Made by a program: the position numbers and the translations under genes. DNA of 64,000 nucleotides, from positions 19,006 to 83,005 of the forward strand of contig JAAWEA010000044.1 of assembly GCA_022794055.1 (NCBI GenBank), given 5' to 3'. Of this stretch, positions 13,971-56,716 are shown one piece after another (position 1 is the stretch's first letter; the number at the start of each line of letters is the position of its first letter). The notes beneath the pieces were generated by a model, which did no database searches, was not told where the DNA came from, and saw nothing but the letters and a program-made list of their open reading frames with translations. This DNA is from Clostridia bacterium (GTDB taxonomy: Bacteria; Bacillota; Clostridia; TANB77; CAG-508).

Positions 13971-14119
13971 AAGAGAAAATGGAGAGAAAGAGGGAAAAAG
14001 GGTCCAGGACAAAAAATCCCTCTTTTCTATTTCATTATCTTAAATCTTAAAAAAAGATAAAAATTAAGAGGGATTTTTTGTCCTGGACCCTTTTTCCCTC
14101 TTTCTCTTCATTTTCTCTT
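13971..14119. repeat. palindromic intergenic repeat element, copy 1 (about 150 bp, near-perfect ~50-nt arms)
   Basis: Arms AAGAGAAAATGGAGAGAAAGAGGGAAAAAGGGTCCAGGACAAAAAATCCCTCTT / AAGAGGGATTTTTTGTCCTGGACCCTTTTTCCCTCTTTCTCTTCATTTTCTCTT around a loop TTCTATTTCATTATCTTAAATCTTAAAAAAAGATAAAAATT. Confidence 0.85.
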
Positions 14120-14181
14120 TTAAGATATTGCAATAAATTTTTTTTAGTAGTAAAATACTTAAAAAAGGAGAAAATTTAATT

Positions 14182-14910
14182 ATGAAATTAAAATTTATTG
14201 GAACAGGATCTATCTCTGACATACCTAATAGTGCTAGTGTACTAGTAAATGAACATATATTATTTGATATTCCAAATGGAAATTTAAAAGCAATGGTAAG
14301 ACAAAAAGTGAATATATTAAAAATAGATACTTTAATAATTTCACATACACATGCTGATCATTGCTTTGATATACCTTTTCTTTTATGGTACAAGAAAAAC
14401 TACAAAAAGGATAAAGAAGAATTATCAACAAGAATTATTACAGATAAAATTACACAAAATACAGTAGAAATTTTAATGAATTTATCACATTTTAATTCTG
14501 CAAGAAATGCTAAAAAGGAATACATAGATGTAGAAGAAGTAAATAGTATAGGAAGGATATGTGATGATGTACAAATATTAAATGTGCCAGTAAAACATAA
14601 ATCAATCAAATATGCTAATGGATATATTATAAAAGATGAAAAAATAAGCATTGGATTAACAGGAGATTCAGCCTTCTGTGAAGGTGTAAAAGAATTAGCA
14701 AGTAAAGTTGATTATTTAATTTCTGATATGACATTAGAAGTAGGAGATAATTCACATATGGGAATAGATAATATATTAGAATTGTTAAAAGATTATCCAA
14801 AATTGAAAATTATCCCTATACATATGCATGATGAAACGAGAGAAAAAGCACTAAATCTAAATATAGATAATTTGATTTTATTAAAGGATGGAGATATTTT
14901 AGAATTATAA
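14182..14910 (+). CDS. MBL-fold metallo-hydrolase
   Basis: HxHxDH motif (ISHTHADHCFD) and a later conserved His (IPIHMHDE). 242 aa. Confidence 0.65.
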   Translation: MKLKFIGTGSISDIPNSASVLVNEHILFDIPNGNLKAMVRQKVNILKIDTLIISHTHADHCFDIPFLLWYKKNYKKDKEELSTRIITDKITQNTVEILMNLSHFNSARNAKKEYIDVEEVNSIGRICDDVQILNVPVKHKSIKYANGYIIKDEKISIGLTGDSAFCEGVKELASKVDYLISDMTLEVGDNSHMGIDNILELLKDYPKLKIIPIHMHDETREKALNLNIDNLILLKDGDILEL

Positions 14911-14919
14911 TTAAAATTA

Positions 14920-14946
14920 GCAGATGAAGTTTATCATCTGCTTTAT
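14920..14946 (+). terminator. rho-independent terminator
   Basis: GCAGATGA-AGTT-TATCATCTGC hairpin followed by TTTAT. Confidence 0.45.
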
Positions 14947-15195
14947 AGTTTATTTTAGTTGTTTATAGTGTACCATATATGTTTTTATTACATTAGTATC
15001 ATTTCATTAAAGTAAAACTATATAGATTTGGAACATTTATAGAATCAATATATATTTTTATAATTATGATATTATGAGAAAAAATTGTTAATTATATTTA
15101 TGTTATAGGAAGTATTTATGGTATTTCAAAAGCAATAACAGGATTTCCATATAATTTGATTGAATCAGAAAGCATTTCAAATAAAGTTAAAATAA

Positions 15196-15336
15196 AAAGA
15201 AAAAAAGAGGGAAAAAGGGTCCAGGACAAAAAATCCCTCTTTTCTATTTCATTATCTTAAATCTTAAAAAAAGATAAAAATTAAGAGGGATTTTTTGTCC
15301 TGGACCCTTTTTCCCTCTTTTTTTCTTCATTTTCTA
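15196..15336. repeat. palindromic intergenic repeat element, copy 2 (loop identical to copy 1)
   Basis: Same arms as copy 1 and an identical central loop. It overlaps the glmS stop codon. Confidence 0.85.
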
Positions 15337-17175
15337 TTCTACTGTAACTGATTTTGCTAGATTTCTAGGTTTATCAACATCTAATCCTTTTTCCTTAGAA
15401 ATATAATAAGAAAGAAGTTGAAGAGGTATTATTGATAAAATAGGAGAAACAAAAGAACTTGTTTTAGGTAGATTAATTACTAAATCAAACATAGTTTTAT
15501 CAATGTTTTGATTTGTAATGACTAAAGTTTTTGCTCCTCGTGTAATAACTTCTTGTATATTACTAATGGTTTTCTTTACTAAATTTTCATCAGTTAAAAT
15601 GCTAATTACAGTAATTCCATTTTCAATTAAAGCAATAGGACCATGTTTTAATTCACCTGCTGCATAACTTTCAGAATGAATGTAAGAAATTTCTTTCATT
15701 TTTAAAGAACCTTCTCTAGCAACGGTTTCATCAATGCCTCTGCCTAAGAAAAACATATCTTTTTCAAGATAGATTTGCTTTGCGAAATCTTTTATTATAT
15801 CTGTACATTTTAAAGCCTCTTCTACCTTTTTTGGGAGTTCCAAAATATTTTGTTTTAAATTTATAATTAAATTTTCATCACATACTTCTAAAATTTCAGC
15901 AAAGTAAATCGCTAATATATTTAATAAAACTACTTGAGATGTATATGCTTTAGTAGATGCTACTGCGATTTCTGGGCCTGCATGAGTATATATTGAATAG
16001 TCAGCTTCTCTAGTTATTGAACTTCCTATAACATTAGAAATTGCAAGCGTTTTAGCACCACTTTCTTTAGATAATTTTAGAGCTGCTATTGTGTCTGCCG
16101 TTTCACCAGATTGTGATATGAAAATGCACAAAGTTTTTTCATCTATAATAGGACTTCTATATCTAAATTCTGAAGCAATATCTACTTCAACTGGAATTTT
16201 GCAAAGTTTTTCAATAGCATTTTTGCAACTTAGACCTGCGTGCATAGCTGTTCCACAAGCTACAATATAAATTTTATTTATACTAGATAAATAGTCTTTA
16301 GTAAATGATAGTTCGTCAAATTGGCATTTTGAATTCAAGCTAATTCTAGCACCAATAGTTTCACGTATAGCTGTTGGTTGCTCATTTATTTCTTTTAACA
16401 TAAAATCGTCAAATCCATCTTTTTCAGCAGATGACATGTTCCACTCTATTGTTTGAGTATCTTTTGTAATTTCTTCTAAATCTTGATTATAAAACTTAGC
16501 AGAATTTCTTGTTAATACAACAAATTCTAAATCATCTAATAAATAGAAGTCTTTTGTATAAGATAAAATGGCTGGAATGTCTGAAGCTAAATATTTTTCA
16601 TCTTCACAGGTTCCTATTACTAAAGGACTGTCTTTTCTTACAACAATCATATTGTTAGGGTATAGTTTTGAAATTGCTTCAATTGCAAAACTTCCTTTTA
16701 AATCAGCACAAGTATTTTTTACTGCTCTTAAAAATTTTAAATCATCATTTTGACTATCTTTTGAATAATAATAATGAATTAAATTTGGTATAACTTCTGT
16801 ATCTGTTTCTGAATAGAAGGTATAGCCTTTTTCAGTTAAAAATGTTCTTAATTCATTGTAATTTTCTATAATTCCATTATGAACTATACTAAATGTTTTT
16901 GAGTTGTCTTGATGTGGGTGGGAGTTTTCTTTACATGGTTTTCCATGAGTAGCCCATCTTGTATGAGCAATACCAATAGTTCCCTCTAAATTATCAATTC
17001 CTTCTAAGTTGCTTAAGTTTTTAACTCTTCCTTTATCCTTCATAATAGATAAATCGTTTTTTTCAATTGTTGAAATACCTGCAGAGTCATATCCTCTGTA
17101 TTCCAATCTACTTAAGCCTGCAATTAAAATAGGGCAAGCTTTCTTATTTCCTATGTAACCTACAATTCCACACAT
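15334..17175 (-). CDS. glmS: glutamine--fructose-6-phosphate aminotransferase
   Basis: N-terminus MCGIVGYIG is the class-II glutamine amidotransferase nucleophile. Two SIS domains. The 613 aa end in ...KSVTVE. RBS GGAGGA is present. Confidence 0.95.
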   Translation of the reverse strand: MCGIVGYIGNKKACPILIAGLSRLEYRGYDSAGISTIEKNDLSIMKDKGRVKNLSNLEGIDNLEGTIGIAHTRWATHGKPCKENSHPHQDNSKTFSIVHNGIIENYNELRTFLTEKGYTFYSETDTEVIPNLIHYYYSKDSQNDDLKFLRAVKNTCADLKGSFAIEAISKLYPNNMIVVRKDSPLVIGTCEDEKYLASDIPAILSYTKDFYLLDDLEFVVLTRNSAKFYNQDLEEITKDTQTIEWNMSSAEKDGFDDFMLKEINEQPTAIRETIGARISLNSKCQFDELSFTKDYLSSINKIYIVACGTAMHAGLSCKNAIEKLCKIPVEVDIASEFRYRSPIIDEKTLCIFISQSGETADTIAALKLSKESGAKTLAISNVIGSSITREADYSIYTHAGPEIAVASTKAYTSQVVLLNILAIYFAEILEVCDENLIINLKQNILELPKKVEEALKCTDIIKDFAKQIYLEKDMFFLGRGIDETVAREGSLKMKEISYIHSESYAAGELKHGPIALIENGITVISILTDENLVKKTISNIQEVITRGAKTLVITNQNIDKTMFDLVINLPKTSSFVSPILSIIPLQLLSYYISKEKGLDVDKPRNLAKSVTVE

Positions 17176-17219
17176 AGTAATCCTCCTTATAAATTAAAAA
17201 TATTGGAATTGAAGTATGC

Positions 17220-17366
17220 AATACTTAATTTTATTGATTTCTGTTTTAGTATTTTTACTAATTTTTGTATCAATAATTTGACCTTAAGTAAAAGCCACTA
17301 GAGCATCCGCCGAATATTTCGATAACCCTAGACCTCGTCAACCTAAATGGTTCTGGCGCTTAGAAA
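17220..17366 (-). ncRNA. glmS ribozyme: glmS ribozyme (GlcN6P-responsive self-cleaving riboswitch) in glmS 5' leader
   Basis: The minus strand reads ...A|GCGCCAGAACCAUUUAGGUUGACGAGGUCUAGGGUUAUCGAAAUAUUCGGCGGAUGCUCUAGUGGC... The AGCGCCAGAAC cleavage-site/P1 core, GACGAGG and UUAUCGAA...UUCGGCGGAUGC are canonical glmS ribozyme elements. A P4-like stem UUAUUGAU/AUCAAUAA lies downstream. Confidence 0.85.
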
Positions 17367-17632
17367 TTAACTCCTTTCTTATAAATTTTTTGCATATTTC
17401 AATTTGTATATTATATTACTATAAATGATAAAAATGTGCAAGTACAATAACTGATATTACAAGAAAAATTTCGATTTTTTTCTATACAAGTACAAAAGGG
17501 GAATGATTGAAATTTTTAGACATTTTAGATAACTTACATGCCCTGTTTTTGTTCGCCTGTCAATTTTATGTAAGTAAAATTATATAGAATTATCTATGTT
17601 ATAGGAAAATCTTTTATTTTTTTTATAACACG

Positions 17633-17664
17633 AAAAAAAGGGCTTAAACTTCAAGCCCTTTTGA
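17633..17664 (-). terminator. bidirectional rho-independent terminator
   Basis: AAAAAAAGGGCTTAAACTTCAAGCCCTTTTG, a GC stem flanked by an A-run and a T-run. Confidence 0.5.
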
Positions 17665-17672
17665 ATGCAGGT

Positions 17673-18047
17673 TTAAGAGAAAATGTCATATTGTATTAGC
17701 CTTTGACGTACAAGACTAAGGTTATTTTGCAGAATTCCGCATACAGACATCTCGTAGCTGTATTTGTTAAGGTAATGGTTGACTATCACCATTTGCAGAA
17801 ATCTTATCATTCTTGAAAACATATTTGATGTTTCATATAAGAATACTTCTACAGAAACATTACACCAACTCTGAAACAAATTTGTAGTATCTTCAAGATA
17901 AGCATTAATAAGTTTTGCTAACATATCTAAATCAGCAAGATACTCTTTGTGATTTTTTTTTAGGTCTTCTGCATTATCTGGTGATAGTAGTACAATATAC
18001 ATATTTACTAACTTGCACATTCTCCGTAATTCCCTATTCATTGTCAT
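17673..18047 (-). CDS. hypothetical protein (locally higher GC than surroundings)
   Basis: 124-aa ORF with a GGAGGG RBS and its own terminator. No recognisable motifs. Confidence 0.35.
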   Translation of the reverse strand: MTMNRELRRMCKLVNMYIVLLSPDNAEDLKKNHKEYLADLDMLAKLINAYLEDTTNLFQSWCNVSVEVFLYETSNMFSRMIRFLQMVIVNHYLNKYSYEMSVCGILQNNLSLVRQRLIQYDIFS

Positions 18048-18174
18048 CCCTCCATTTTGTATTTGGAAAATTTAATGCTAATTTTTGCTATTATATCATA
18101 GTTTTACATAAATGTCTATTGCCTATATATTGATTTTAAAGATAAATATATTATATAATACTAAAGGGGATATA

Positions 18175-18687
18175 ATGAAAGAATTAAATGTACTAATAAA
18201 TAATGCAAGACTAGAAAAAAGATTAGACGAAATGGCAAAAGAAATTGAAAAAGATTATAAAGGGAAAGAAATTGTTTTTATAGGAATTTTAAAAGGTTCT
18301 GTTCCATTTATGTGGGAATTAGCAAAAAGAATAAAAAACAATATAATTTTTGAATTCATTGAAGTATCAAGTTATATAAACAACGAAAGTTCAGGAAAAG
18401 TAATATTACATAAAGATATAAAAAGCAGCATAGAGGGGAAAGATGTTATTATAGTAGAAGATATTGTTGATACAGGAAAGACATTAGATTTTTTACTAAA
18501 ACATTTAGAAGAGAAAAATGCGAAAAGTGTAAAAATAGCAACATTATTAAGTAAACCATCAAGAAGAGTAATAGAACTAAATGTAGATTATATAGGCTTC
18601 AAAATTGATGATAAATATGTTGTAGGATTTGGATTAGATGATAACCAGAACTTAAGGAACTTGCCTTATATTGGATATTATGAATAG
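18175..18687 (+). CDS. hpt: hypoxanthine-guanine phosphoribosyltransferase
   Basis: MKELNVLI...VFIGILKGSVPFMWELAKRI...VIIVEDIVDTGKTL is a PRTase type I PRPP-binding motif. RBS AAAGGGGA is present. Confidence 0.9.
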   Translation: MKELNVLINNARLEKRLDEMAKEIEKDYKGKEIVFIGILKGSVPFMWELAKRIKNNIIFEFIEVSSYINNESSGKVILHKDIKSSIEGKDVIIVEDIVDTGKTLDFLLKHLEEKNAKSVKIATLLSKPSRRVIELNVDYIGFKIDDKYVVGFGLDDNQNLRNLPYIGYYE

Positions 18688-18695
18688 AGGGAAAA

Positions 18696-20477
18696 ATGTT
18701 TAATATTGAAGAGGAACTAAAAAAATTACCAGGAGAGCCTGGTGTATATATAATGAAAGACAAAAATGACACTATAATTTATGTTGGAAAAGCAGTGTCA
18801 TTAAAAAATAGAGTGAGGTCTTATTTTAGAAAAACAAATAAGACTGAAAGAATTAAGAAAATGGTAAGTTTGATTGACCATTTTGAGTATATTGTTGTTG
18901 ATAATGAAGCAGAAGCATTGATTTTAGAGTGTAACTTAATTAAGAAAAATCGTCCTAAATTTAATGTTTTATTAAAAGATGATAAAACATATCCTTATAT
19001 AAAAATTGATGTAAAATCAGAATATCCAAATGTAATAATAACAAGAAAATTGATTAATGATGGTGCAAGATATTTCGGTCCTTATGCTAATCCTGGTGCA
19101 GCAAAGGAAATGTTAAATTTTATAAAGCAAAGATATAAAATACGTCAATGTAGAAATTTTAAGTCTACAACAAGACCTTGTTTAAATTATCATATTAAAA
19201 GGTGTTTAGCACCTTGTGTGGGATATGTAACACCAGAAAATTATAGGAAGCAAATAGATGAAATTATTGATTTACTAGAAGGAAAGACAGATAAAATTAT
19301 TAAAGAATTAGACAAGCAAATGGAAGAGGCATCAAAAAAATTGGAATTTGAAAAAGCAGCAGAATTGCGTGATAGAAAAGTAGCAATTGAAAGAGCTTCT
19401 TCTAAGCAAAAAGTTTCTAATATTTCAGAAAATAATATTGATGTAATTGGTTTATATAAATCAAAGATTGATGTATGTGTAGAGATTTTCTTTGTTAGAG
19501 GAAGCAAAATGATAGGAAGAGAGCATTACTTTTTTCCAGAGTTAAAAGATATGGATAGCATGGAGATATTAACAGGTTTTATCAAACAGTATTATTTAGA
19601 AAATCCTAATATTCCAAATAGAATAATGCTAAGGGAAGAATTAGCTGATAAACAAGTAATTGAACAATGGTTATCCACAGAATTAGGAAAAAAAGTGGAA
19701 TTAAAGAGTCCTAAAAAAGGTGAAAAGTTGAAATTTGTGGAAATGGCAGAGAATAATGCTAAAATAACACTACAAAATAAAGAAAAAGATAAATCAGAAA
19801 TAATGATGGAATTAAAACAAGTATTAAAATTAGATAAGCTTCCAAGAAAAATTGAAACATTTGATATTTCAAACATTTCAGGTGAATTTATGGTTGCAGG
19901 AATGTGTGTAATGATAGATGGGGTTATTAAGAAAAATCTTTCAAGAAGGTTTAAAATAAAAACGGTTTTTTCTCAAGATGATCCTAAATGTATGGAAGAA
20001 GTTGTAACTAGAAGATTAGCACATTCTATTGAAAAAGAGGATAGTGGATTTGGAAAGTTACCAGATGTATTTTTTGCTGATGGTGGAATTACACAGATTA
20101 GAGCAATTAAGCAAGCCGTTGAAAAATATAATTTAGATATACCAGTGTTTGGTATGGTTAAAAATGATAAACATCAAACAAGAGCCTTGATGGATGAAAA
20201 TAGAAATGAACTTCCAATTTCAGAAAATTTGATGAATTTAATTACTAGATTTCAAGATACTGTACATGATACAGCAATTACTTACCATAGGAAATTAAGA
20301 GAAAAGTCAGTTACAAAATCAGAGCTTGATGATATAAAAGGAATAGGTGAGGCAAAGAAGAAATCATTATTAAAGCATTTTGGTAGTGTTGAGAAAATAA
20401 AACATGCTTCCAAAGAAGATTTGATGGAAGTTAAGGGAATTACAGAAAAAATTGTAGAACAGATTAAAAAAGAGTAG
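18696..20477 (+). CDS. uvrC: excinuclease ABC subunit C
   Basis: N-terminal GIY-YIG domain (LPGEPGVYIMKDKNDTIIYVGKAVSLKNRVRSYF), UvrBC motif, and C-terminal RNaseH-like plus HhH (IKGIGEAKKKSLLKHFGSVEKI). 593 aa. Confidence 0.95.
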   Translation: MFNIEEELKKLPGEPGVYIMKDKNDTIIYVGKAVSLKNRVRSYFRKTNKTERIKKMVSLIDHFEYIVVDNEAEALILECNLIKKNRPKFNVLLKDDKTYPYIKIDVKSEYPNVIITRKLINDGARYFGPYANPGAAKEMLNFIKQRYKIRQCRNFKSTTRPCLNYHIKRCLAPCVGYVTPENYRKQIDEIIDLLEGKTDKIIKELDKQMEEASKKLEFEKAAELRDRKVAIERASSKQKVSNISENNIDVIGLYKSKIDVCVEIFFVRGSKMIGREHYFFPELKDMDSMEILTGFIKQYYLENPNIPNRIMLREELADKQVIEQWLSTELGKKVELKSPKKGEKLKFVEMAENNAKITLQNKEKDKSEIMMELKQVLKLDKLPRKIETFDISNISGEFMVAGMCVMIDGVIKKNLSRRFKIKTVFSQDDPKCMEEVVTRRLAHSIEKEDSGFGKLPDVFFADGGITQIRAIKQAVEKYNLDIPVFGMVKNDKHQTRALMDENRNELPISENLMNLITRFQDTVHDTAITYHRKLREKSVTKSELDDIKGIGEAKKKSLLKHFGSVEKIKHASKEDLMEVKGITEKIVEQIKKE

Positions 20478-20486
20478 GAAATTGAA

Positions 20487-20645
20487 AGAATGGAAGAGGG
20501 AAAAAGGGTCCAGGACAAAAAATCCCTCTTTTTTGTGTTATATTATTTTAAACAAAAAAAAAGAGGGATTTTTTGTGTTATATTATTTTAAACAAAAAAA
20601 AGAGGGATTTTTTGTCCTGGACCCTTTTTCCCTCTTCCCTTCTTT
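20487..20645. repeat. palindromic intergenic repeat element, copy 3 (variant loop with internal ~39-bp tandem duplication)
   Basis: Arms GAAGAGGGAAAAAGGGTCCAGGACAAAAAATCCCTCTT / AAGAGGGATTTTTTGTCCTGGACCCTTTTTCCCTCTTC. The loop contains GTGTTATATTATTTTAAACAAAAAAAAGAGGGATTTTTT twice. Confidence 0.85.
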
Positions 20646-22696: not shown

Positions 22697-23560
22697 ATGA
22701 AATTAGCAAGTGAGTGGGAAAATTATAAGTTGTTAGATATGGCGAATGGACAAAAATTAGAAAGATGGGGAGATGTTGTACTTTCTAGGCCTGATCCACA
22801 AATTATATGGAAAGAAAAAAGTTTTCCTAAAAAATGGAAAGAAATTAATGCGACATATCATAGAAGTAATTCAGGTGGAGGCTCATGGGAATTTAATAAA
22901 AAAATGCCAAAGCAATGGAAAATTAAATATAAAAGTTTAACATTTAATATTAAACCAATGGGATTTAAGCATACAGGACTATTTCCAGAGCAAGCGATAA
23001 ATTGGGATTGGATGATAAATAAAATAAGATTAGAAAGAAGAGAAATAAAAGTATTAAATTTATTTGCATATACAGGTGGAGCAACAGTTGCTTGTAGCTA
23101 TGCAGGTGCAGCAGTATGCCATGTAGATAGTTCAAAAGGAATGACTACATGGGCAAAAGAAAATTTAGAAGCATCGGGATTGAAAGATAGACCTGTTAGA
23201 TTTATTGTTGATGATGTTGTAAAGTTTGTAAATAGGGAGATTAGAAGAGGAAATAAATATGATGCTATTATAATGGATCCGCCATCTTATGGAAGAGGAG
23301 CAAATGGAGAAGTATGGCAATTTGAAAATAATATATATGATTTAGTAGAACTATGCACAAATGTATTATCAGATAATCCATTATTTTTCTTAATTAATTC
23401 ATATACTACAGGAATATCTAGTAAGGTTTTGGAAAACATTTTAGATCTAACAGTAAATAGAAAGAAAAAAGGTAAATTGGAATCAGGAGAAATAGGAATT
23501 CCAATGGAAAATTCCAAATTAGTGTTGCCTGCTGGAATTTATGGAAGATGGGAGAAATAG
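22697..23560 (+). CDS. class I SAM-dependent methyltransferase (RlmI/YccW-like RNA methyltransferase family)
   Basis: AYTGGATVACSYAGA is the motif I Gly-rich loop. IMDPPSYGR is a DPPxF/Y-type motif IV. Confidence 0.55.
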   Translation: MKLASEWENYKLLDMANGQKLERWGDVVLSRPDPQIIWKEKSFPKKWKEINATYHRSNSGGGSWEFNKKMPKQWKIKYKSLTFNIKPMGFKHTGLFPEQAINWDWMINKIRLERREIKVLNLFAYTGGATVACSYAGAAVCHVDSSKGMTTWAKENLEASGLKDRPVRFIVDDVVKFVNREIRRGNKYDAIIMDPPSYGRGANGEVWQFENNIYDLVELCTNVLSDNPLFFLINSYTTGISSKVLENILDLTVNRKKKGKLESGEIGIPMENSKLVLPAGIYGRWEK

Positions 23561-24280
23561 ATATTTATACTATTTTAAAAGGAGAAAAAATGAAAAATTT
23601 GAAAGTAATATATGAAGATAATCATATTATTGTAGTAGAGAAATTACCTAATATTCCGTCTCAAGCTGATAAGACAGAAGACATAGATATGATAACTATA
23701 GTAAAAGAATATATTAAAGAAAAATATAATAAACCTAGAAATGTATATTTAGGATTGGTGCATAGGCTAGATAGACCTGTTGGAGGTGTTATGATATTTG
23801 CTAAAACTTCTAAGGCAGCAGGAAGATTAAGTGATCAGGTAAGAAATAAAGTTTTTAAGAAAAAATATTTAGCAGTAGTTGATGGAAAAGTAAATCCAAA
23901 TAAGCGGAGATTTAGAAGATTATTTATATAAAGATGAAAGAAATAATATGAGTAAAGTAGTTAGTAAAGACAAGAAGAATGCAAAGTTAGCAAAGTTAGA
24001 TTATGAATTAATAACTTATAATGAAGTAAAAAAATTAAGTTTAATAAAAGTAAATTTACATACAGGGAGACATCATCAAATTAGAGTGCAATTATCACAT
24101 TTTGGGCATAGCATTTTTGGAGATCAAAAATATGGACTTAGAGGAAAAGGTAAGCAAATAGCATTATGGGCTTATGAATTAACTATAGAACATCCAATTA
24201 CTAAAGAAGAAATAACATTTAAAGATTTACCACAAAGTTTAGGAACATGGTGCATTTTAAAAAATATTAGTAATTTATAG
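23548..24280 (+). pseudogene. RluA-family pseudouridine synthase disrupted by +1 frameshift (single C insertion near 23905)
   Basis: ORF1 carries HRLDRPVGGVMIFAKT, the RluA catalytic Asp motif. ORF2 carries LHTGRHHQIRVQLSH. Deleting C in AAG-C-GGA gives a continuous ...DGKVNPNKGDLEDYLYKDERNNMSKVV... reading frame. Confidence 0.7.
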
Positions 24281-25307: not shown

Positions 25308-25473
25308 TTTTCAATATGTTTTTAAATTTAAGTATAGTGTTTAATTATACTGTACTTAAAATAATATACTTTAATGTTATTATAAACAATCCAACCAAAA
25401 AAGAACAGTTTAAACTGTTCTTTTTTGGTTGGATAAAATAAAGAAGGAATTTTTATTCTAAAATCCTTTTTAT

Positions 25474-34690: not shown

Positions 34691-35791
34691 TTAATTATTT
34701 ATAACTTTTTTTGTTGCTTCAATTTTTATATTAGTATATTTAACTACGTCTTTTATTACTAATTTTTGAATTGCTGATATTAGTAATTCAATTGTAGTAT
34801 AATCAATTTCATTATCTATCACAGGAACAGCTAATAATTGATTATTTATGACATTTTCGTTAAAGCTCGATGCTCCCCAGCTAAATGTTTTAAATGATTT
34901 TGCCATACTTGTAATAAAATATAATGCTCTTTTTTTATTAAAATTATCATTTTTACTACATAAAACTTTTATTTTATCACCTGTAAAATAAGAGTTTTCT
35001 TGATAGAACATTGTTGCAGTATCTTGTCCAAATGAAATTGTATTACCAGGATTTAAAAATTGTTCATCTTGGTTAATATATCCCTTTATACCATTATTTA
35101 ATGCTGTTCTAACAACATATGGATGTCCTATATTTTCAGTTATATTTACTTTATTAGCATCAAATCTTTTTTTGGAAGAATTGACATAAAATAAATCATT
35201 GATTTTAAATTCATCTAAATACATAGTTTCAAAATTATTTAAAATATTATTTTCTTCTTCTGTTAATTCATAGTTTTTTAAACCAGTAACATTCAAATAT
35301 TTTTCTAGTTCAGTGACACGCTGAATTTCTAACTCGGCGACATGTTGAGTTTCTAACTTGGCAACAAAGTTCTCTATAAATTCAAAATCAATTTTTCCTT
35401 TTTTCATTGGAATTTTAACTTCATAATTTTTTATATCTTCTAATTTATATCCTCCCTGTTGTCCATCATATAATGACACAAATTTTTTAATTAAAGTTAC
35501 AAAATAATAAGCAATTTGTTTATTCCATTTTTCTATTGTGGACTTTGGTGTTAGTTTATTTATATTTTGTGAGCAATAATATTCTTCTTCCTGATATTTA
35601 ACATACTTATAATTACCAATTACTGTTGCTGTAATTGTATTGGGTTCATTTGGTGGAAAGTTTCTTCTATCAATTTTTCCTTGTATTCCATTATTTGAAA
35701 AAGTTCGCCCAACAAAATTAATTCCATTTTTCACAAATGTTATTGCATTACTATCTAGTGATTTCGTTCCAACAATTTCAAATAAATCCAT
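34691..35791 (-). CDS. restriction-modification specificity (S/HsdS-like, BcgIB-like) subunit
   Basis: 366 aa with two target-recognition-like halves separated by a conserved coiled-coil spacer (LEIQRVTELEKYLNVTGLKNYELTEEEN). It lies immediately downstream of the nuclease-methyltransferase gene. Confidence 0.65.
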   Translation of the reverse strand: MDLFEIVGTKSLDSNAITFVKNGINFVGRTFSNNGIQGKIDRRNFPPNEPNTITATVIGNYKYVKYQEEEYYCSQNINKLTPKSTIEKWNKQIAYYFVTLIKKFVSLYDGQQGGYKLEDIKNYEVKIPMKKGKIDFEFIENFVAKLETQHVAELEIQRVTELEKYLNVTGLKNYELTEEENNILNNFETMYLDEFKINDLFYVNSSKKRFDANKVNITENIGHPYVVRTALNNGIKGYINQDEQFLNPGNTISFGQDTATMFYQENSYFTGDKIKVLCSKNDNFNKKRALYFITSMAKSFKTFSWGASSFNENVINNQLLAVPVIDNEIDYTTIELLISAIQKLVIKDVVKYTNIKIEATKKVINN

Positions 35792-35844
35792 CAGTCTATA
35801 TTCGCCCCACTCAACATTATTTAACTTTTCGTTAAGTGAGGCAT

Positions 35845-37893
35845 CTATTTTCCCAAGCGATTATCCTCATTACTCGAATTTTTTAATACATTAGTTACTT
35901 CCCAATCTAAATATTCACGTACAGTTTTTTTAAAATCTTCTAATGTAGGTTTTGTATCAACTGGGGCAGTCTGATTCCAATCTGCTCCATTTTCTGGATC
36001 AATAGTACCTTCATAATATTCTTGTTCAGTCAAATAATTTAATTTTGATTTTCCAAATCTTACTAAATCAACTACTTCTTCATATCTTTCTTTAGCATTA
36101 TTTGTATCTTTCAAGTTGTTACTTGCTTTCTTTCTATTTGTACGTGTATATCCATCATTTGAAAAATCTATAAATTTAACAGGATCATCCTTTTGATGTG
36201 CTTCTCCAACTCTAAAAACATATATACTTGTCTGAACACTTGATTTTCCAACAAATAAGTCTATTGGCATTTTTATACTTGCTAAAAGAGAACTATGTTT
36301 TAATATTTTTTTATTGTATTCTGTTGCTTTTCCAGAACCTGCTGAATTTTGAATAATTATTGCAGCATAACCTTTATCCATCATTGATAAAGCTTTTTCA
36401 ACAAATATCATTCCATTTCCTTGTGCAGAATATGGGGGATTTAATACAAATGCTGTTGCTGGAAACTTTTCATTAGTATTGCCAAAACCATAGTTTCCAT
36501 TAAAGTCGATTAAGGAGTCTTTATTGATAATGTTAGAACTACCATCTCCCATTAAAATCATATTTAATATAGCTAACATATACACACTTGGTAAAATTTC
36601 AATCCCTAAAATTTGAGTTGCTTTTATTTTTGCTACTTTAAGTGATAATTCATCTGGAGACTTTATTTTATCTTTTGCATCTATTAACATTTCATTCATT
36701 GCTGCTACTAGTAAGCCTGCTGAACCAGTTGCAAAATCCCATACAAAAGAATCTTTATCTACTCTTGCAAGTTTTACAAGTAATGTTGCTATATAAGATG
36801 GAGTTAAAACAACATCATTTAATTTATCTTGAGTAAATCCAAGCCAATTATACATTTCATTAAATAATTTTCCTGTAAAATCTGTTGTTAAGCCAATTTT
36901 ATAATATATTCCCAAATCATCTATAATTTTAGAGAATACTCTTTTTAATTGACTTTCTCCATTTGTTACTTTGTTAATATTATCTGTTGTTAATGTATTT
37001 TTTAATGTTCTTATAATAAGTTCTTTTTTATCAATTGGTAATTGTTTTTTATTTAAAAAACTTTCTATCTTTCTTATAACAATATCACCATCTCTATAAC
37101 CTTCTTCTGTTGATGAGATTAAATCAGATTTTTCAAGAGGTTGTACTTCTCCTGGTATACCAATTGTAGCAATAATTGAAGCTGCTACTAGATAAACTCT
37201 GTCATTTTCTCCAAGTCCTTTTTCGTTTTGATAAATGTCATTATTAAGTTTTACTAAACTAGCATCAATTTCTTTTTCTCTTTTTTCCTTTAATTGTTCA
37301 AGTTCTTCTTGTGTTAAGTGCAAATTTCTAACTTTTTGTATAAATTCATCAAAGTTACTTTCTTTCAAGAAAGATAAATCTGTGTAGTCATCTACTTTTT
37401 GACCAATTCCCAAGTTGTCTTTTGAAACATAATATACTCCTATTTCAGGTATTACATTGTTATTATCATCTTTGTATCCAGTTACTCCAATAGATATAAT
37501 ATCAGTATAACTTGTATAATGAAGTAAAGCATTAGCATAGTGTACAGCACCATTTACAGCATAAGAATTAATATTTTTTAATATTGGCTCATTTTTATCT
37601 GTTCTATTATCAACTTGTCCATTACTATTTAGTTTTACTAATTTATCTTTATATCCTTTATATTCAATCAATATTGGATATTGTTTTAAAGTTGTTTTAT
37701 CTTGTAATAACAGTTTTACATCTGGACGATTTCCACCTTTTCCACCACTTTTTGAATAATATTCATTAAGGGCTGTATCTATTTCACTATTTAATGTTTC
37801 TTGTTCTAATTTATAATCTAACTTATATGACTTTAACCAACCATTTACTAAATCTGCGACCATTGGTTCTATTGATTGTACATGCTTTACCAT
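35845..37893 (-). CDS. Type IIB (BcgI-like) restriction-modification enzyme A subunit: N-terminal PD-(D/E)xK nuclease fused to gamma-class N6-adenine DNA methyltransferase
   Basis: Methyltransferase motif I is VWDFATGSAGLL and motif IV is VLNPPYS. The N-terminal region has a candidate PD...ExK (GGNRPDVKLLLQD...YPILIEYKGY). 682 aa. No HsdR is nearby. Confidence 0.7.
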   Translation of the reverse strand: MVKHVQSIEPMVADLVNGWLKSYKLDYKLEQETLNSEIDTALNEYYSKSGGKGGNRPDVKLLLQDKTTLKQYPILIEYKGYKDKLVKLNSNGQVDNRTDKNEPILKNINSYAVNGAVHYANALLHYTSYTDIISIGVTGYKDDNNNVIPEIGVYYVSKDNLGIGQKVDDYTDLSFLKESNFDEFIQKVRNLHLTQEELEQLKEKREKEIDASLVKLNNDIYQNEKGLGENDRVYLVAASIIATIGIPGEVQPLEKSDLISSTEEGYRDGDIVIRKIESFLNKKQLPIDKKELIIRTLKNTLTTDNINKVTNGESQLKRVFSKIIDDLGIYYKIGLTTDFTGKLFNEMYNWLGFTQDKLNDVVLTPSYIATLLVKLARVDKDSFVWDFATGSAGLLVAAMNEMLIDAKDKIKSPDELSLKVAKIKATQILGIEILPSVYMLAILNMILMGDGSSNIINKDSLIDFNGNYGFGNTNEKFPATAFVLNPPYSAQGNGMIFVEKALSMMDKGYAAIIIQNSAGSGKATEYNKKILKHSSLLASIKMPIDLFVGKSSVQTSIYVFRVGEAHQKDDPVKFIDFSNDGYTRTNRKKASNNLKDTNNAKERYEEVVDLVRFGKSKLNYLTEQEYYEGTIDPENGADWNQTAPVDTKPTLEDFKKTVREYLDWEVTNVLKNSSNEDNRLGK

Positions 37894-51961: not shown

Positions 51962-51962
51962 T

Positions 51963-52550
51963 ATGAATAAAGAAGAATTAGATAAAATAAAAAATCAAGC
52001 TCTTTTAGAAAATATACCAATTATAATGGATGACACATTAGAAGTAATAGAAAAAAGGCTAAAAGAAAATCTACCACAAAGAATATTAGAAATAGGTACA
52101 GCAGTAGGATATTCTGCTATATGCTTTTCGGAATTTCTAAAAGAAAATGGAAGAATTGACACAATAGAAAGAGATGAAGAAAGAGTTAAACAAGCAATAG
52201 AAAATATTAAAAAAGCAGGAGTAGAAGAAAAAATCAAAATTTATCAAGGTGATGCAGTAGAAATATTGCCTACTTTAAATGAAAAATATGATATGGTATT
52301 TATTGATGCAGCAAAAGGAAAATATCCATTTTTCTTAAAAGAAGCATTAAGAATGTTAAATAAAGATGGAATTATTTTTGCTGATAATATTCTTTACAAA
52401 GGATATGTATTGAGTGATTATAATAAGCATAAACAACGTACAGCAGTAAGAAATTTAAGAGAATATATTAAGCAAGTTTCTGAAAATCCTAATTTAGATA
52501 CAGAAATTTTAGAAGTTGGAGATGGATTAGCAATTAGCAAGATAAAATAA
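51963..52550 (+). CDS. class I SAM-dependent O-methyltransferase (family 3; YrrM/TrmR-like)
   Basis: ILEIGTAVGYSA is the motif I Gly-loop. Acidic residues, FIDAAK, and FADNILYKG, typical of the caffeoyl-CoA-OMT-like family. 195 aa. Confidence 0.7.
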   Translation: MNKEELDKIKNQALLENIPIIMDDTLEVIEKRLKENLPQRILEIGTAVGYSAICFSEFLKENGRIDTIERDEERVKQAIENIKKAGVEEKIKIYQGDAVEILPTLNEKYDMVFIDAAKGKYPFFLKEALRMLNKDGIIFADNILYKGYVLSDYNKHKQRTAVRNLREYIKQVSENPNLDTEILEVGDGLAISKIK

Positions 52551-52561
52551 AAGGAAAAACC

Positions 52562-52606
52562 CCTATCTTGAAATAAAATCAAGATAGGGGAAATTTTGTA
52601 GATACT
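52562..52606. terminator. bidirectional rho-independent terminator
   Basis: CCCCTATCTTGA-AATAAAA-TCAAGATAGGGG flanked by an A-run and a T-run. Confidence 0.5.
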
Positions 52607-52607
52607 T

Positions 52608-53444
52608 TTAACACTCATCAATATGTTTAGCTTTTTTAAGCCCAATTTTGTCAAATATTGAACCATCATGAAAAACCTTGAAGCTTGGTATATGAACTTT
52701 TTCACATTCAAACCAAATATGTTTGTTAATAGCCTTGTACTTATTATCTTTGTAGCTATTGTGTGCTGCTTCCCCTATTTCTGCTTCTTCGTGCATTATA
52801 AGTGTTCTTATTTGCACTTCAAAGGTGTCATTGCCTTCTACAGTTTTGTAAGCGATGTGTATGGATTCATATTTGTCTCTTGGAACTTCAATGTAGTTTT
52901 TGATAAGTGGATCAGACCCTACCTGTTTTGCAGGAGTACATACTGTACATCGAAGTCTTTTTTTAAAGTATTCCATACATATATCTTTTACATCATAGCA
53001 ATATGAAACTGCGGAACCAAGTGAGTCAATTATGACTCGAAAGGCAATTAAATCAGAAAGATCTATACTTTTACCTTCAAAGTAATATAGAACTACCTTT
53101 TTCACAGTACTTTCAAAACTTTTCCTTCGGCATTCAATTGTAATTGAAACTCCTTTTGGAAGTCTTTGTGAAAAAATAGAGAGTAAAGTGGCAATTTGTG
53201 AACGGAGTTTCTTGATAAATCTGCGATTTTGTACGACTTTCTTATAGCGAATAAATTCGCTAACAAGATCTTGGCACATTTCATCATGTTGGCTTGATAA
53301 CAAAGAAATGAATGTGTTAATAACTTCTAAGAAATCGTTGTTCGAATATATTGCTTTCCGATAAAGATTTCCTATAAGTTCTAAGCTTTTTTCCTGCTGA
53401 GGTGTTAATTCAATAGTTTCTTCTTGTTTTTTCTGAGTAGCCAT
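52608..53444 (-). CDS. RelA/SpoT-domain (p)ppGpp synthetase, small alarmone synthetase with N-terminal extension
   Basis: CRRKSFESTVKK is the R-x-K-x-x-S synthetase motif. Also DLIAFRVII and EVQIRTLIMHEEAEIGEAAHNSYK, the canonical EIQIRT..MH.WAE..H..YK. 278 aa. Confidence 0.6.
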   Translation of the reverse strand: MATQKKQEETIELTPQQEKSLELIGNLYRKAIYSNNDFLEVINTFISLLSSQHDEMCQDLVSEFIRYKKVVQNRRFIKKLRSQIATLLSIFSQRLPKGVSITIECRRKSFESTVKKVVLYYFEGKSIDLSDLIAFRVIIDSLGSAVSYCYDVKDICMEYFKKRLRCTVCTPAKQVGSDPLIKNYIEVPRDKYESIHIAYKTVEGNDTFEVQIRTLIMHEEAEIGEAAHNSYKDNKYKAINKHIWFECEKVHIPSFKVFHDGSIFDKIGLKKAKHIDEC

Positions 53445-53596
53445 TTTGATATTCCTCCTAATTTTTTATGCTAACTACATATTGATATTATAACACAAAT
53501 TTACATAAAAAGAAAGTTTTGACTATAAATATTGACTTTAGAGGGGGGCATGTATATAATAATTAAGAGAAAAAGAGAGAAGAGAGTGAAAATAAA

Positions 53597-54829
53597 ATGA
53601 AAAAAATAGAATTATTAGCACCAGCAGGTTCATTTGAAAAAGCAAAAATAGCATTTAAATATGGGGCTGACGCAGTGTATTGTGGAACATCATCATTATC
53701 ATTAAGAACAAGAGCTGATATGGATAATAATGACTTAATAAAAACAATAGAATATGCACATAGCATTGGAAAAAAAGTTCATGTTACAATAAATATTTTT
53801 GCATTTGATGAAAAATATGAAGAAATAATAGAATTAGCAGAAATGTTAAATAAAGTAAAGCCAGATGCAATTATTGCTGCAGATGTAGGAGTAATTGAAA
53901 CTTTAAAACAATATGCACCAGATGTCCCAATTCATGTAAGTACACAAGCAAACATAATAAGCTTAAGAGATGCTAACTTTTGGCATAAAAATGGTGCTCA
54001 AAGAGTTATTATGGCAAGAGAGATGAATAAGGAACAATTAAAATATATTATGGAAAATAAACCTAAAGAGTTGGAAGTAGAAATGTTTGGACATGGTTCA
54101 ATTTGTTTTGCATTTTCTGGAAGATGCTTTTTAAGTGATTTTATGTGTGGAAGAAGTGCAAATTTAGGAGATTGTGCTCAAAGTTGTAGATGGTCATATA
54201 ATTTATATGCAGAAGAAAAAAATAATCCAGGTGAACTTTTGCCAATAGAAGAAAGTGAGTATGGAACAAGTATATTTTCATCAAAAGATCTATGTTTGCT
54301 AAAAGAAATCCCAGAAATTATTGATATGGGTATTGATAGCCTAAAAATAGAAGGTAGGCTAAAAACAGAATATTATATTGCAAGTGTTATAAATGTGTAT
54401 AGAAATGCAATAGATGATTATATTAAAGCACCTGAAAGTTATGATTATACAAAGTACTTAAAAGAAATTGAAAAATCAAAGACTAGAGAATTTACAACAT
54501 TTTATTTTAATGATAGAAATAATAAAGATATACAAGATTTAAGTGGAAGGCAATATAATGATAAATATGAATTTGGTGGAATAATATTAGATTATAAAAA
54601 AGAAAAATCTGTAATAGAAATAAAAAATAAATTGAGTGTTGGAGATATAATGGAACTTATAATGCCTAATAGGCTAGAACCAGAAGTGTTTCAAATTACA
54701 AAATTGTGGGATTATGAAACACAGGAGCAAATTGATAGTATTAGCCCAGGAGTAAAAGGGCAAAAAGTTTTTATGAAATTACCAATTGAATGTGAGAAAG
54801 ATTGGATTTTAAGAAGAAAGAAAATTTAA
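53597..54829 (+). CDS. peptidase U32 family protein (RlhA/YhbU-like)
   Basis: N-terminus MKKIELLAPAGSFEKAKIAFKYGADAVYCG, the conserved E...C...HGS, and a Cys-rich CFAFSGRCFLSDFMCGRSANLGDCAQSC Fe-S-like cluster typical of U32. Confidence 0.8.
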   Translation: MKKIELLAPAGSFEKAKIAFKYGADAVYCGTSSLSLRTRADMDNNDLIKTIEYAHSIGKKVHVTINIFAFDEKYEEIIELAEMLNKVKPDAIIAADVGVIETLKQYAPDVPIHVSTQANIISLRDANFWHKNGAQRVIMAREMNKEQLKYIMENKPKELEVEMFGHGSICFAFSGRCFLSDFMCGRSANLGDCAQSCRWSYNLYAEEKNNPGELLPIEESEYGTSIFSSKDLCLLKEIPEIIDMGIDSLKIEGRLKTEYYIASVINVYRNAIDDYIKAPESYDYTKYLKEIEKSKTREFTTFYFNDRNNKDIQDLSGRQYNDKYEFGGIILDYKKEKSVIEIKNKLSVGDIMELIMPNRLEPEVFQITKLWDYETQEQIDSISPGVKGQKVFMKLPIECEKDWILRRKKI

Positions 54830-54872
54830 TTAAAAAGACCTCAAAAATGAATATTCACTTTTGGAGGTCTTT

Positions 54873-55421
54873 TTAATTTTGAGAATCTTCTAATAAGATA
54901 TCAAGTATTTTTGGATACAATTTGGAAGCATTTTTATTCCAGTTGTCTACAATTTTTTTTGCTCTTTCTCGAGATCCAGCAAAAGTTCTAACTTCAAATA
55001 TTGTATCATTTTTTTCGACAATTTTACATTTAATTGTATAATCATTTTCATTTTTAGGAGTAAACTCAGTTATAATAGAAGTTTCATCTACAATTGAAGA
55101 AAATTCTTCTTTAAATACATTGTCAGCTTTTAATTTTATTATTCCTGGCAAAACATCAATAGTAAGAGAAAGCGCATTTTTCCCTTCACTTGTTATTCTT
55201 AGTATAGATTCTTCTTCGTCGTCTTTAGTAAATATACCCACTAATTTGGAATCTAATAAATCTGTTAAAACTTCCTTAAAGTAAAAATAATTAACATTAT
55301 TTATAGAAGAAATAATTTTATACAAGCCATCTTCTAATAGACCATCTGTAACTCTATTTAAAGTGTATAAAATTAATACTTTATTTTCAGCCAAAGTAGC
55401 AGTATTATCGTGATTAGACAT
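54873..55421 (-). CDS. hypothetical protein (DUF4364-like)
   Basis: 182-aa ORF with RBS. No diagnostic motif. Confidence 0.3.
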   Translation of the reverse strand: MSNHDNTATLAENKVLILYTLNRVTDGLLEDGLYKIISSINNVNYFYFKEVLTDLLDSKLVGIFTKDDEEESILRITSEGKNALSLTIDVLPGIIKLKADNVFKEEFSSIVDETSIITEFTPKNENDYTIKCKIVEKNDTIFEVRTFAGSRERAKKIVDNWNKNASKLYPKILDILLEDSQN

Positions 55422-55598
55422 TTTATAACACTCCTTACTTCGTAATTTTTTGTATTATATCATAAAAAATGGAAAAAGTAAAATATTTTATGATAATACT
55501 TAAAAATTTCAATCATTGTTATAAAAATATTTTAAATAATGTTTATAATATGTATAAAAAGTTATATAATAATAAATAAGACAAAAGGAGGTAGTAAA

Positions 55599-56555
55599 AT
55601 GAAAAAGGGAAAAGTGGTTCTAGTGGGAACAGGCTTTGTAGGAATGAGTATGGCATATTCTATATTGAATAAGGGTGGTGTAAATGAACTTATATTAATA
55701 GATATAGATAAGGATAAAACAATAGGGGAACAAATGGATTTGTCAGATGGATTACCTTTTGCTCCACAAAAGATTGTAATAAAAGCAGGAGATTATAGTG
55801 ATTGTAATGATGCACAAATAGTTGTAATAACAGCAGGAGTTCCTCAAAAACCAGGAGAGACAAGATTAGAATTAGCAGAAACAAATACAAGAATTATTAA
55901 AAATATAACTAAAAGTATAATGGAAAGTGGATTTAATGGTGTAATAGTTGTTGCTAGTAATCCAGTAGATTTGATGACTTATGTTGTATCGGAAGTATCA
56001 GGACTTCCAAAAAATCAAGTAATTGGAACAGGAACAGTTTTAGATACTGCAAGATTGCGCTATATTATTTCAGAATATTTAAAAGTATCGAGTAAAAATG
56101 TTCATACTTATGTTATGGGAGAACATGGTGATTCTTCTTTTGTACCTTGGGAGCAGGCTTATGTAGGATGTAAAAAAATTAAAGACATTATGAAAGAAAA
56201 AAATTATTCAATAAACAAGTTAGAAGAAATACATCAAGAGGTTGTTAATGAAGCTTATAAAATTATAGAGAAAAAGAAAGCAACATATTATGGAATAGGA
56301 ATGGCTCTAAGTAGAATTTTAAAAGCTATATTAGATAATGATAATTCAATTATAACAGTTTCTACTTATTTAAAAGATGGAGAATATGGACAGGATGATA
56401 TTTATATAGGAGTACCTGCAATTGTAAATAGTAATGGAGTAAGAGAAGTATTAAAAATTGAATTAAGTGAAGAAGAACAAACGAAATTAAATGATAGTTG
56501 TAAGATTATTAAGGACATGAGAAAAGAATATATTGATAAGATTATAGAAGAATAA
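55599..56555 (+). CDS. ldh: L-lactate dehydrogenase
   Basis: GKVVLVGTGFVGMSMAY is the Rossmann GxGxxG. ITAGVPQKPGETRLEL has the substrate Arg. MGEHGDSSF has the catalytic His. ATG at 55599 after AAAGGAGG. Confidence 0.9.
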   Translation: MKKGKVVLVGTGFVGMSMAYSILNKGGVNELILIDIDKDKTIGEQMDLSDGLPFAPQKIVIKAGDYSDCNDAQIVVITAGVPQKPGETRLELAETNTRIIKNITKSIMESGFNGVIVVASNPVDLMTYVVSEVSGLPKNQVIGTGTVLDTARLRYIISEYLKVSSKNVHTYVMGEHGDSSFVPWEQAYVGCKKIKDIMKEKNYSINKLEEIHQEVVNEAYKIIEKKKATYYGIGMALSRILKAILDNDNSIITVSTYLKDGEYGQDDIYIGVPAIVNSNGVREVLKIELSEEEQTKLNDSCKIIKDMRKEYIDKIIEE

Positions 56556-56556
56556 T

Positions 56557-56716
56557 GGAAAGAGAAAAAGGGAAAAAGGAAAAGGGAAAAAGGGTCCAGG
56601 ACAAAAAATCCCTCTTAAAAAATAACTATATTGCCAAACAATATAGTTATTTTTTAAGAGGGATTTTTTGTCCTGGACCCTTTTTCCCTTTTCCTTTTTC
56701 CCTTTTTCTCTTTTCT
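56557..56716. repeat. palindromic intergenic repeat element, copy 4 (longer arms, nested palindromic loop)
   Basis: Arms GGAAAGAGAAAAAGGGAAAAAGGAAAAGGGAAAAAGGGTCCAGGACAAAAAATCCCTCTT and its complement. The loop AAAAAATAACTATATTG..CAATATAGTTATTTTTT is itself a palindrome. Confidence 0.85.

Follow-up and report, generated by a model that had tools for sequence, protein, structure and literature searches.

Lineage-specific hairpin-forming repeats of REP/REPIN-like architecture at gene 3′ ends in a gut Clostridia genome

Repetitive extragenic palindromic (REP) sequences form species-specific families of short hairpins. In Pseudomonas, REP doublets forming hairpins (REPINs) are mobilised by Y1 transposases of the REP-associated tyrosine transposase (RAYT) type, and the REP-containing bacterial interspersed mosaic elements (REP-BIMEs) of Escherichia coli are of a related kind; singlets are seen as decayed copies, and roles in termination and in the protection of mRNA 3′ ends have been proposed. 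Here we describe a family of long palindromic repeats in a 64-kb stretch of contig JAAWEA010000044.1 from an uncultured, low-GC Clostridia bacterium of the gut (the whole stretch is hereafter called the window). They are best explained, with a probability of roughly 0.6, as lineage-specific, non-coding, hairpin-forming dispersed repeats of the REP/REPIN kind that occupy terminator slots.

Other hairpin-forming repeats found by stop codons are miniature inverted-repeat transposable elements (MITEs), such as EFAR in Enterococcus, Correia/NEMIS in Neisseria, ERIC in enterobacteria and RUP/BOX in the pneumococcus, which have defined ends, conserved internal sequence and usually target duplications (TA for Correia). 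The uptake sequences of Neisseria and Haemophilus are species-specific motifs of 9–12 nt whose inverted pairs form terminators downstream of genes. REPs are described as short hairpin units, with inverted dimers folding into larger structures, located downstream of genes and between convergent or unidirectional open reading frames (ORFs), and are defined by a GTAG (or CGTC) tetranucleotide at the hairpin foot (PMC3733652). The background of the same source gives the stop-codon MITEs as palindromic, non-coding repeats of 100–170 nt whose stable transcript hairpins affect mRNA stability or termination (PMC3733652). TIRYT genes, which are RAYT-like, are flanked by terminal inverted repeats (TIRs) with the consensus GGGG[AT][CG]A[CG] (PMC3733652, PMC6006769). 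A literature search for REP or RAYT in Firmicutes or Clostridia found nothing relevant, and the REP surveys consulted are silent on these groups.

The window family resembles REP, BIME and REPIN in its hairpin unit, its inverted doublets, its extragenic 3′ location and its lineage-specific sequence, and differs in that the conserved motif lies at the apex (GGGACG in the clade, GGGTCCAGGAC in the window) and not at the foot, and in that its arms are much longer owing to a purine-rich tail. With the stop-codon MITEs it shares palindromy, lack of coding sequence, proximity to ORF ends and a similar size; it departs from them in its variable centre, in showing no duplication and in having the hairpin unit as its repeated module. 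Ordinary bidirectional terminators have the same A-tract/GC-stem/T-tract symmetry and convergent-gap location, but their stems are of ∼10–15 bp instead of 45–75 bp, and they lack both a 36-nt block common to unrelated sites and conserved unpaired spacers. The TIR consensus of TIRYT genes fits a few of the relatives' apexes (for example GGGGACAG in locus L013), which is a lead only, since it is not matched by the commonest apex of the relatives, GGGGACG, or by the window core, and no such gene was seen. Integron attC sites were rejected, the arms having no GTTRRRY-type cores, the neighbours being housekeeping genes (glmS, uvrC, ldh) and the window having no integrase. CRISPR repeats and uptake sequences were set aside because their defining features are absent, the latter being without a larger conserved hairpin unit.

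Anatomy and position of the repeats

The 23-nt core GGGTCCAGGACAAAAAATCCCTC was searched in the window at up to three mismatches, with 100 dinucleotide-preserving shuffles as control. Nine matches were obtained, eight of them exact, against 0.00 expected. They pair as plus- and minus-strand arms at four full copies (A–D), with one lone match on the minus strand at 10838–10860, which carries one mismatch. An earlier note on this stretch had claimed five copies of a long palindromic repeat at these sites, and the core search bears it out.

Copy extents were taken from repeat finding and from a separate palindrome scan. Copy A is an inverted doublet at 13967–14123, with arms at 13967–14024 and 14066–14123 (57 of 58 positions paired) around a 41-nt centre at 14025–14065. 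Copy B, likewise an inverted doublet, lies at 15197–15327 (15188–15336 on looser limits; 45 of 45 paired, loop 41 nt), and copy C at 20485–20645 (53 of 55 paired, loop 51 nt; 55 nt at 96% by repeat finding). The longest palindrome is copy D, at 56559–56713 (looser limits 56548–56724), with 75 of 75 positions paired around a loop of 5 nt; repeat finding gives it as an inverted repeat of 86 nt at 94%. The four palindromes are near-perfect, as previously described, and span 131–177 nt, with arms of 45–75 nt where 40 to 55 nt had been given. The fifth locus ('mini', 10836–10872, minus strand) belongs to the family as a single diverged unit, that is, one arm with the one-mismatch core and an 8-bp stem fold, and not as a small palindrome pair. 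It consists of the reverse complement GGGATTTGGGGTCCAGGACAAAAATTCCC plus a stem extension, and its sequence is intermediate between GGGATT-type units of relatives, such as GGGATTAGGGGCCTGGTCTTCAATCCC, and the expanded window family. Four of the five loci are therefore inverted doublets and the mini a degenerate singlet.

Alignment of the eight arms defines a 36-nt unit block, AGAGGGAAAAAGGGTCCAGGACAAAAAATCCCTCTT, present in A at 13989–14024 (plus) and 14066–14101 (minus), in B at 15206–15241 (plus) and 15283–15318 (minus), in C at 20495–20530 (plus) and 20600–20635 (minus) and in D at 56581–56616 (plus) and 56656–56691 (minus). It is identical in six arms; D differs by one G>A, the same in both of its arms. 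The block is a small hairpin with a 7-bp stem, AGAGGGA/TCCCTCT, and A-rich spacers on either side of an apical mini-palindrome, GTCC-A-GGAC, in agreement with the earlier proposal that each arm is itself a hairpin. The unit AGAGGGA-AAAA-GGGTCCAGGAC-AAAAAA-TCCCTCT measures 35 nt and is a short imperfect palindrome within the 20–40 nt of a REP; with the outer stem written as (AGA)GGGA/TCCC(TCT), the basic unit is ∼29–36 nt overall. The 9-mer GTCCAGGAC/GTCCTGGAC is confined to the repeat family within the window.

Outside the block each arm runs on as a purine-rich tail that differs from copy to copy. The match of an outer arm to its own partner, as an alignment score out of 24, is 20 in A, 22 in D, 7 in B and 2 in C, and scores between copies have a mean of 3.8 and a maximum of 8 (permutation of pairing, P = 0.02). 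The centres of A/B, C and D are mutually unrelated. A and B are identical over ∼113 nt, centre included (127 nt at 97% by repeat finding), suggesting recent copying in the window. In C, the loop and the inner end of one arm are repeated in tandem (20529–20615, plus strand; Tandem Repeats Finder: period 40 nt, 2.2 copies, 97% matches), and the centre of D (56617–56655) is an A-tract/stem/T-tract palindrome nested in the larger one. The loop variants reported before, with A equal to B and a nested perfect palindrome in D, are thus present, as is the tandem duplication, with a period of 40 rather than 39 nt. We considered the D centre as a captured native terminator: it has terminator symmetry, yet its AT-only stem is unlike the native terminators here.

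All five copies lie directly after stop codons, four between convergent genes and one between tandem genes, and elements occupy four of the nine convergent gaps of the window. Copy A overlaps the bofA stop codon (13968–70) and is located upstream of the promoter and ribosome-binding site (RBS) of a metallo-β-lactamase (MBL)-fold gene, and the right end of copy B meets the glmS stop codon (15334–6, minus strand). Copy C fills the entire gap from the uvrC stop (20475–7) to that of a 518-aa gene of unknown function (20648–50, minus), and copy D the gap between the stops of ldh (56553–5) and of a Lon-like protease gene (56716–8, minus). The mini lies between an ArsP-like permease gene (plus) and a TraG/VirD4-like gene (minus), 3′ of an ordinary terminator hairpin at 10789–10821. 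Gene labels were assigned from Pfam (BofA, GlmS, UvrC, Ldh, ArsP-like permease, TraG-like ATPase), and both the labels and the contact with stop codons agree with what had been reported for all copies.

Predicted RNA folds are single hairpins for copy A (dG −104 kcal/mol, z −17.9 versus shuffles), copy C (−93 kcal/mol, z −11.7) and copy D (−130.9 kcal/mol, z −21.3). The G+C content of the window is 22–30%, so that none of its other non-coding stretches comes close to the copies in G+C or in degree of structure. They have no coding capacity, and the 'EKGSRTKNPSF' ORFs, already suspected to be spurious, arise because the arms are translated. On both strands the elements read as A5, a GC-rich helix (GGGTCCAGGAC/GTCCTGGACCC) and T5, followed by CCCTCTTT. 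At C and D the element is the sole structure between two converging stop codons, and the element-free compact convergent gaps at 52551–52607 and 54830–54872 each hold one ordinary A-tract/GC-stem/T-tract terminator. The anatomy therefore fits the bidirectional terminators proposed earlier, and termination itself is predicted from it.

At gathering thresholds, Rfam reports only the glmS ribozyme and one tRNA in the window and no family overlapping the elements; the tRNA-Met is distant, at 61187–61263. The ribozyme (RF00234, 77.6 bits) lies upstream of glmS at 17221–17371 (minus), as expected for the group. In E-value mode Rfam yields generic long-hairpin microRNA-precursor models, all below their thresholds, and these were discarded.

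The outer ∼30–45 nt of the arms of A, B and C, with unchanged flanks, are found in this organism's contigs from 10 or more independent samples and from two assemblers; the mini is identical in seven independent assemblies. Recurrence of the same sites in at least 10 independent samples indicates that the elements are real and fixed there in the sampled population. The short-read contigs stop exactly one 31-mer past the last arm-specific base. One of them (L094, from Logan) also stops inside a single-copy palindrome at 25389–25434, which shows that palindromes by themselves break de Bruijn assemblies; since palindromy alone accounts for the breaks, we rejected the contig ends as proof of a multi-copy family. 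That palindrome, ATCCAACCAAAAAAGAACAGTTT|AAACTGTTCTTTTTTGGTTGGAT, is a perfect loopless one of 46 nt between agrB and a GHKL histidine-kinase gene, and is unrelated to the family. The ending of short-read contigs at palindromes probably adds to the fragmentation of metagenome-assembled genomes (MAGs) in the clade and to the absence of the repeats from databases.

Hairpin units and insertions in related gut Clostridia

The nearest relatives of the window are 'uncultured Clostridium/Clostridia' MAGs, Clostridium sp. CAG:389 and CAG:575, and the best GlmS match among species representatives has 88% identity. Comparisons were made on 57 loci (∼1 Mb) from CAG:389-like MAGs. Located 3′ of glmS and of uvrC, the relatives have plain bidirectional terminators or long palindromes of their own built from different hairpin units, indicating that the window elements were not inherited at these sites. 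Beyond these loci, the spurious ORF through copy C had no match among 5.8 billion proteins, copy A no BLAST match in annotated phages and plasmids, and a relative's unit no match in a scan of IMG/VR. A shorter 19-nt pattern gave seven metagenome matches that were rejected as chance, coming from organisms with GC of 0.48–0.68 and from plain terminators or coding DNA.

A perfect 6-bp stem enclosing GGGNC within 26–32 nt was found 171 times in the relatives' loci against 16.9 times in shuffles, a few of the matches being conserved coding stretches. The intergenic matches make up at least 12 lineage-specific families, the outer stems of which are divergent yet complementary (TTGTCA/TGACAA, GAGACA/TGTCTC, GTGCCA/TGGCAC, TTTTCA/TGAAAA, GGGATT/AATCCC, GTCCCA/TGGGAC and others), with an interior that retains RRGGGACG..YCC..TTTT. 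These units measure ∼27–31 nt. Defined as extragenic units of ∼26–32 nt with a complementary outer stem of at least 6 bp, they constitute a clade-wide superfamily that is apparently undescribed so far. Enclosure in a stem was seen for 50 of 93 GGGACG occurrences (54%), compared with 3–8% for ten control GC-rich 5-mers. The idea that GGGAC is a word specially enriched between genes was dropped, its enrichment being 3.1-fold but similar for other GC-rich 5-mers; only the hairpin-enclosure test was specific. Units are single or paired as inverted doublets; where a doublet is asymmetric, its 5′ arm is always the G-rich form, whichever strand is read. Per nucleotide, unit density in convergent gaps is 3–4 times that in tandem or divergent gaps, without the units being confined to the former.

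The window family appears, by its architecture and weak sequence similarity, to be a derivative of this superfamily, a lineage-specific branch of it that the earlier note had missed. Its unit GGGA...TCCC measures 29 nt, with a stem extendable to 7 bp and doublets that are G-rich-first, and so fits the superfamily architecture. In the relatives, GGGA..TCCC units of 27–29 nt numbered 40 where 8.2 were expected, and 32 of the 40 fell in intergenic DNA, which makes up 18% of the sequence; one unit in L046, AGAGGGATTAAGGGGACGGGTCTTCAAATCCCTCT, has an outer stem identical to that of the window unit. An nhmmer search of the 1 Mb with the eight window arms retrieved a unit of L056 (E = 0.0035) and that of L046 (E = 0.23). 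GGGACG itself, with 93 occurrences in ∼1 Mb of relatives (∼6 per 64 kb), has none in the window on either strand, where the apex is GGGTCCAGGAC instead, suggesting that the window family is an apex-switched derivative.

The informative site for turnover is the junction between a SAM methyltransferase stop and a pseudouridine synthase start, at 23561–23589 in the window. It is 'empty' in about ten lineages, where TAA is followed by ATG and the RBS lies within the upstream gene. L046 and L011 have one GAGACA-type unit there in one orientation and L006 a decayed one; L012 and L005 have a GAGACA-type unit in the opposite orientation, L017 has a GGGATT-type unit, and L003, L004, L056 and L020 have inverted doublets. 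L059 and the window show only a short filler plus a second RBS. These states make clear that gain, loss or replacement of superfamily units has taken place at a single site in different lineages, and they mark this translationally coupled junction as a hot spot for insertions in the clade. All filled junctions carry a TTTCTCC(C) RBS segment on both sides, which could represent a target duplication of ∼9 nt or, equally, selection to keep the RBS functional. Only one flank has the RBS-like segment at a second site in L046, and selection rather than the insertion mechanism may thus account for its duplication at the junction. Movement of doublets with a conserved spacer is not supported, as the spacers of GAGACA doublets at different sites align poorly.

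In the window, 29 nt of filler and no unit separate the methyltransferase stop (23558–60) from the true synthase ATG (∼23590), and the filler is possibly a footprint. The synthase, of the RluA type, is split into ORFs at 23548–23931 and 23948–24280 (127 and 110 aa); the independent contig L094 shows it split likewise, so that a sequencing error of the window is excluded.

The A/B pair is associated with an insertion of a different kind. bofA and glmS are convergent neighbours in 28 relatives, 46–234 nt apart in 21 of them. In the window, an insert (14124–15187) comprising the MBL-fold gene (14182–14910) and 245 non-coding nucleotides separates them, with A and B on either side in direct register. 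The product of this gene is labelled Anti-Pycsar Apyc1-like by Logan's gene table, and tblastn (E ≤ 1e-3) gives no match to it at the locus of any relative. The bracketing is compatible with a circle that integrated by recombining with a resident element, and also with an element that was duplicated along with the insertion. The other seven relatives (L005, L008, L012, L014, L015, L022 and L027) have 0.4–2 kb of different small genes between glmS and bofA, and the spot is therefore a general insertion hot spot of the clade. As these seven inserts are not flanked by hairpin units, repeat-bracketed gene cassettes are ruled out as a general rule, A/B being a single observation. The repeats mark recombination-prone spots, the bracketed MBL gene being an example.

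Further evidence on copy A comes from L101 (ENA ERZ14650994 NODE_4201), a contig of a slightly different strain. Compared with window 13940–14040, its last 100 nt read as the left arm of A, which carries the arm-specific G, followed by the reverse complement of the centre. This suggests flip-flop inversion of the A centre by arm-to-arm recombination, or otherwise an assembly path artefact in this one short-read contig.

Proposed mechanism and competing explanations

For the window family we infer mobility, termination and homogenisation of the arms, which may be connected as follows. A trans-acting activity encoded outside the window would recognise the hairpin with its apex and copy units or doublets into further extragenic sites. 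Insertions would survive mainly in short gaps after stops, where a hairpin is harmless or useful. The transcript would fold into a very stable hairpin, with a GC-rich helix and then U5 on either strand, and the window copies would double as predicted bidirectional intrinsic terminators and/or 3′-exonuclease blocks protecting the mRNA end, replacing the simple terminator of relatives. The two arms would be kept alike by hairpin-templated correction or by arm-to-arm recombination, and the same process could flip the centre.

Several results weigh against these repeats being mobile, REP-like terminators. Only five copies are visible in the 64 kb covered, and the exact core has no match in 185,579 species (one genome each), in JGI metagenomes or in IMG/VR. 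The earlier note had proposed searches for a cognate transposase and for insertion polymorphism between strains. No transposase or recombinase, and no RAYT gene, was found among the 50 window ORFs scanned with Pfam, and tblastn gave no IS200-like match in the window or in the ∼1 Mb of relatives' loci with an approximate query. All contigs recovered by exact flanking proteins, a look-up that reaches near-identical strains only, carry the elements, and none has an empty site. No window copy has a direct target-site duplication, and the 36-nt block and its tail are free of GTAG/CTAC and of CGTC/GACG. The absence of a foot tag and of a detected RAYT gene means that membership of REP is not established; of the 'REP/MITE type' assigned earlier, the REP/REPIN architecture stands, and the foot tag of the former and the target-site duplication of the latter are not seen. 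Homogenisation has to contend with outer arms in B and C that resemble their partners weakly. As for termination, the U5 tract is broken by CCC, and a consensus terminator scan of the window does not call the elements, because their loop exceeds 8 nt. In addition, the relatives' units are found within operons and in some of the divergent gaps as well, which rules out termination as a general explanation of why they exist.

A classical MITE, an insertion sequence (IS) deletion derivative moved whole by a DDE transposase encoded elsewhere in the genome, is the alternative that survives best, and we regard it as unlikely. The family has the long terminal inverted repeats, the small size (131–177 nt) and the absence of coding sequence that characterise MITEs; A and B are identical including the centre, as copying of a whole element predicts, and at the relatives' junction an RBS-like segment is duplicated on either side of every insert. 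However, that segment is one-sided at the second L046 site, and the window copies show no direct repeats: the flanks of A are inverted (AAAAGA/TCTTTT), extending the palindrome, and those of B, C and D are unrelated. Movement as a whole element also accounts poorly for centres that are unrelated in A/B, C and D despite matching arms, and for the existence of singlet units, among them the mini and many units of the relatives. The window contains no IS with such ends.

Quite unlikely, in our estimate, are immobile native bidirectional terminators whose concerted evolution, through recombination or gene conversion between sites, would involve no dedicated mobilising enzyme. Such a process would be expected to give differing centres with identical arms if the arms alone were converted, and the bracketing of a lineage-specific gene insertion by A and B points to recombination at the repeats. 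Furthermore, the elements stand where relatives have plain terminators, several of a GGGATT...AATCCC type resembling the unit stem, and their A5–GC helix–T5 signature matches ordinary terminators of the window. Conversion, however, requires prior homology at each site. Conservation of a 36-nt block, unpaired A-rich spacers included, in eight arms over 43 kb goes beyond the needs of termination, and the relatives' units are found in both orientations at a translationally coupled junction, where no terminator is expected.

The full conservation of the apex GTCC-A-GGAC, which cannot alone form a stable RNA hairpin and is found nowhere else in the window, raises the question of DNA-level recognition sites, for a nucleoid, segregation or regulatory protein, or of uptake-like tags in inverted terminator pairs. 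The relatives' GGGACG apex, kept despite changing stems, and the species-specific 'dialects' would agree with this. The conserved block is, however, far longer than typical binding or uptake motifs, long perfect arms are unnecessary for binding, the flanking genes are functionally unrelated and no candidate binding protein was identified; we consider recognition sites very unlikely. Assembly artefact or chance similarity can be dismissed, for although assembly of long palindromes is difficult and short-read contigs break off within them, nine core matches were observed where none was expected and the outer arms of A, B and C recur with the same flanks in independent samples and with two assemblers.

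Returning to dispersed repeats of the REP/REPIN kind, a wider scheme may be put forward tentatively, with the odds against it. Gut Clostridia of the CAG:389/CAG:575 type would host undescribed mobile hairpin units of ∼30 nt, with the apical GGGACG as specificity determinant, spread as singlets and doublets at stop codons and served by a putative clade-specific trans-acting protein (a nuclease/transposase or an RNA-binding factor). The window lineage would have switched the apex (GGGACG to GGGTCCAGGAC) and the protein specificity together, after which long doublets would have expanded anew. REP-type repeats and Y1 transposases having been characterised almost entirely in Proteobacteria, an analogous system in abundant uncultured gut Clostridia, with an apical motif and no GTAG/CGTC, would widen the known range, and the different rules of the clade's units would point to a recognition protein yet to be identified. 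The repeats also generate spurious ORF calls, which matters for annotation, and if bidirectional termination is true they would offer compact, portable terminators for low-GC anaerobes.

Other features of the window

A TruA-like gene upstream in the window (8435–9040; region 8031–9040) appears split in other assemblies, as 64 aa plus 195 aa in L101. The S and M subunits of a type I restriction-modification system are encoded at 34691–37893 (minus), the M subunit matching VRR-NUC weakly at its N terminus; an R subunit gene was not identified in the window ORFs scanned. Positions 88–7241 represent the tail/lysis end of a prophage, with a holin and an amidase carrying ChW repeats. A 515-aa protein of this prophage has periodic repeats of 33 nt (11 aa) at 878–1168, and its tail-fibre protein (4377–5363) carries a type I dockerin domain, which is unusual there.

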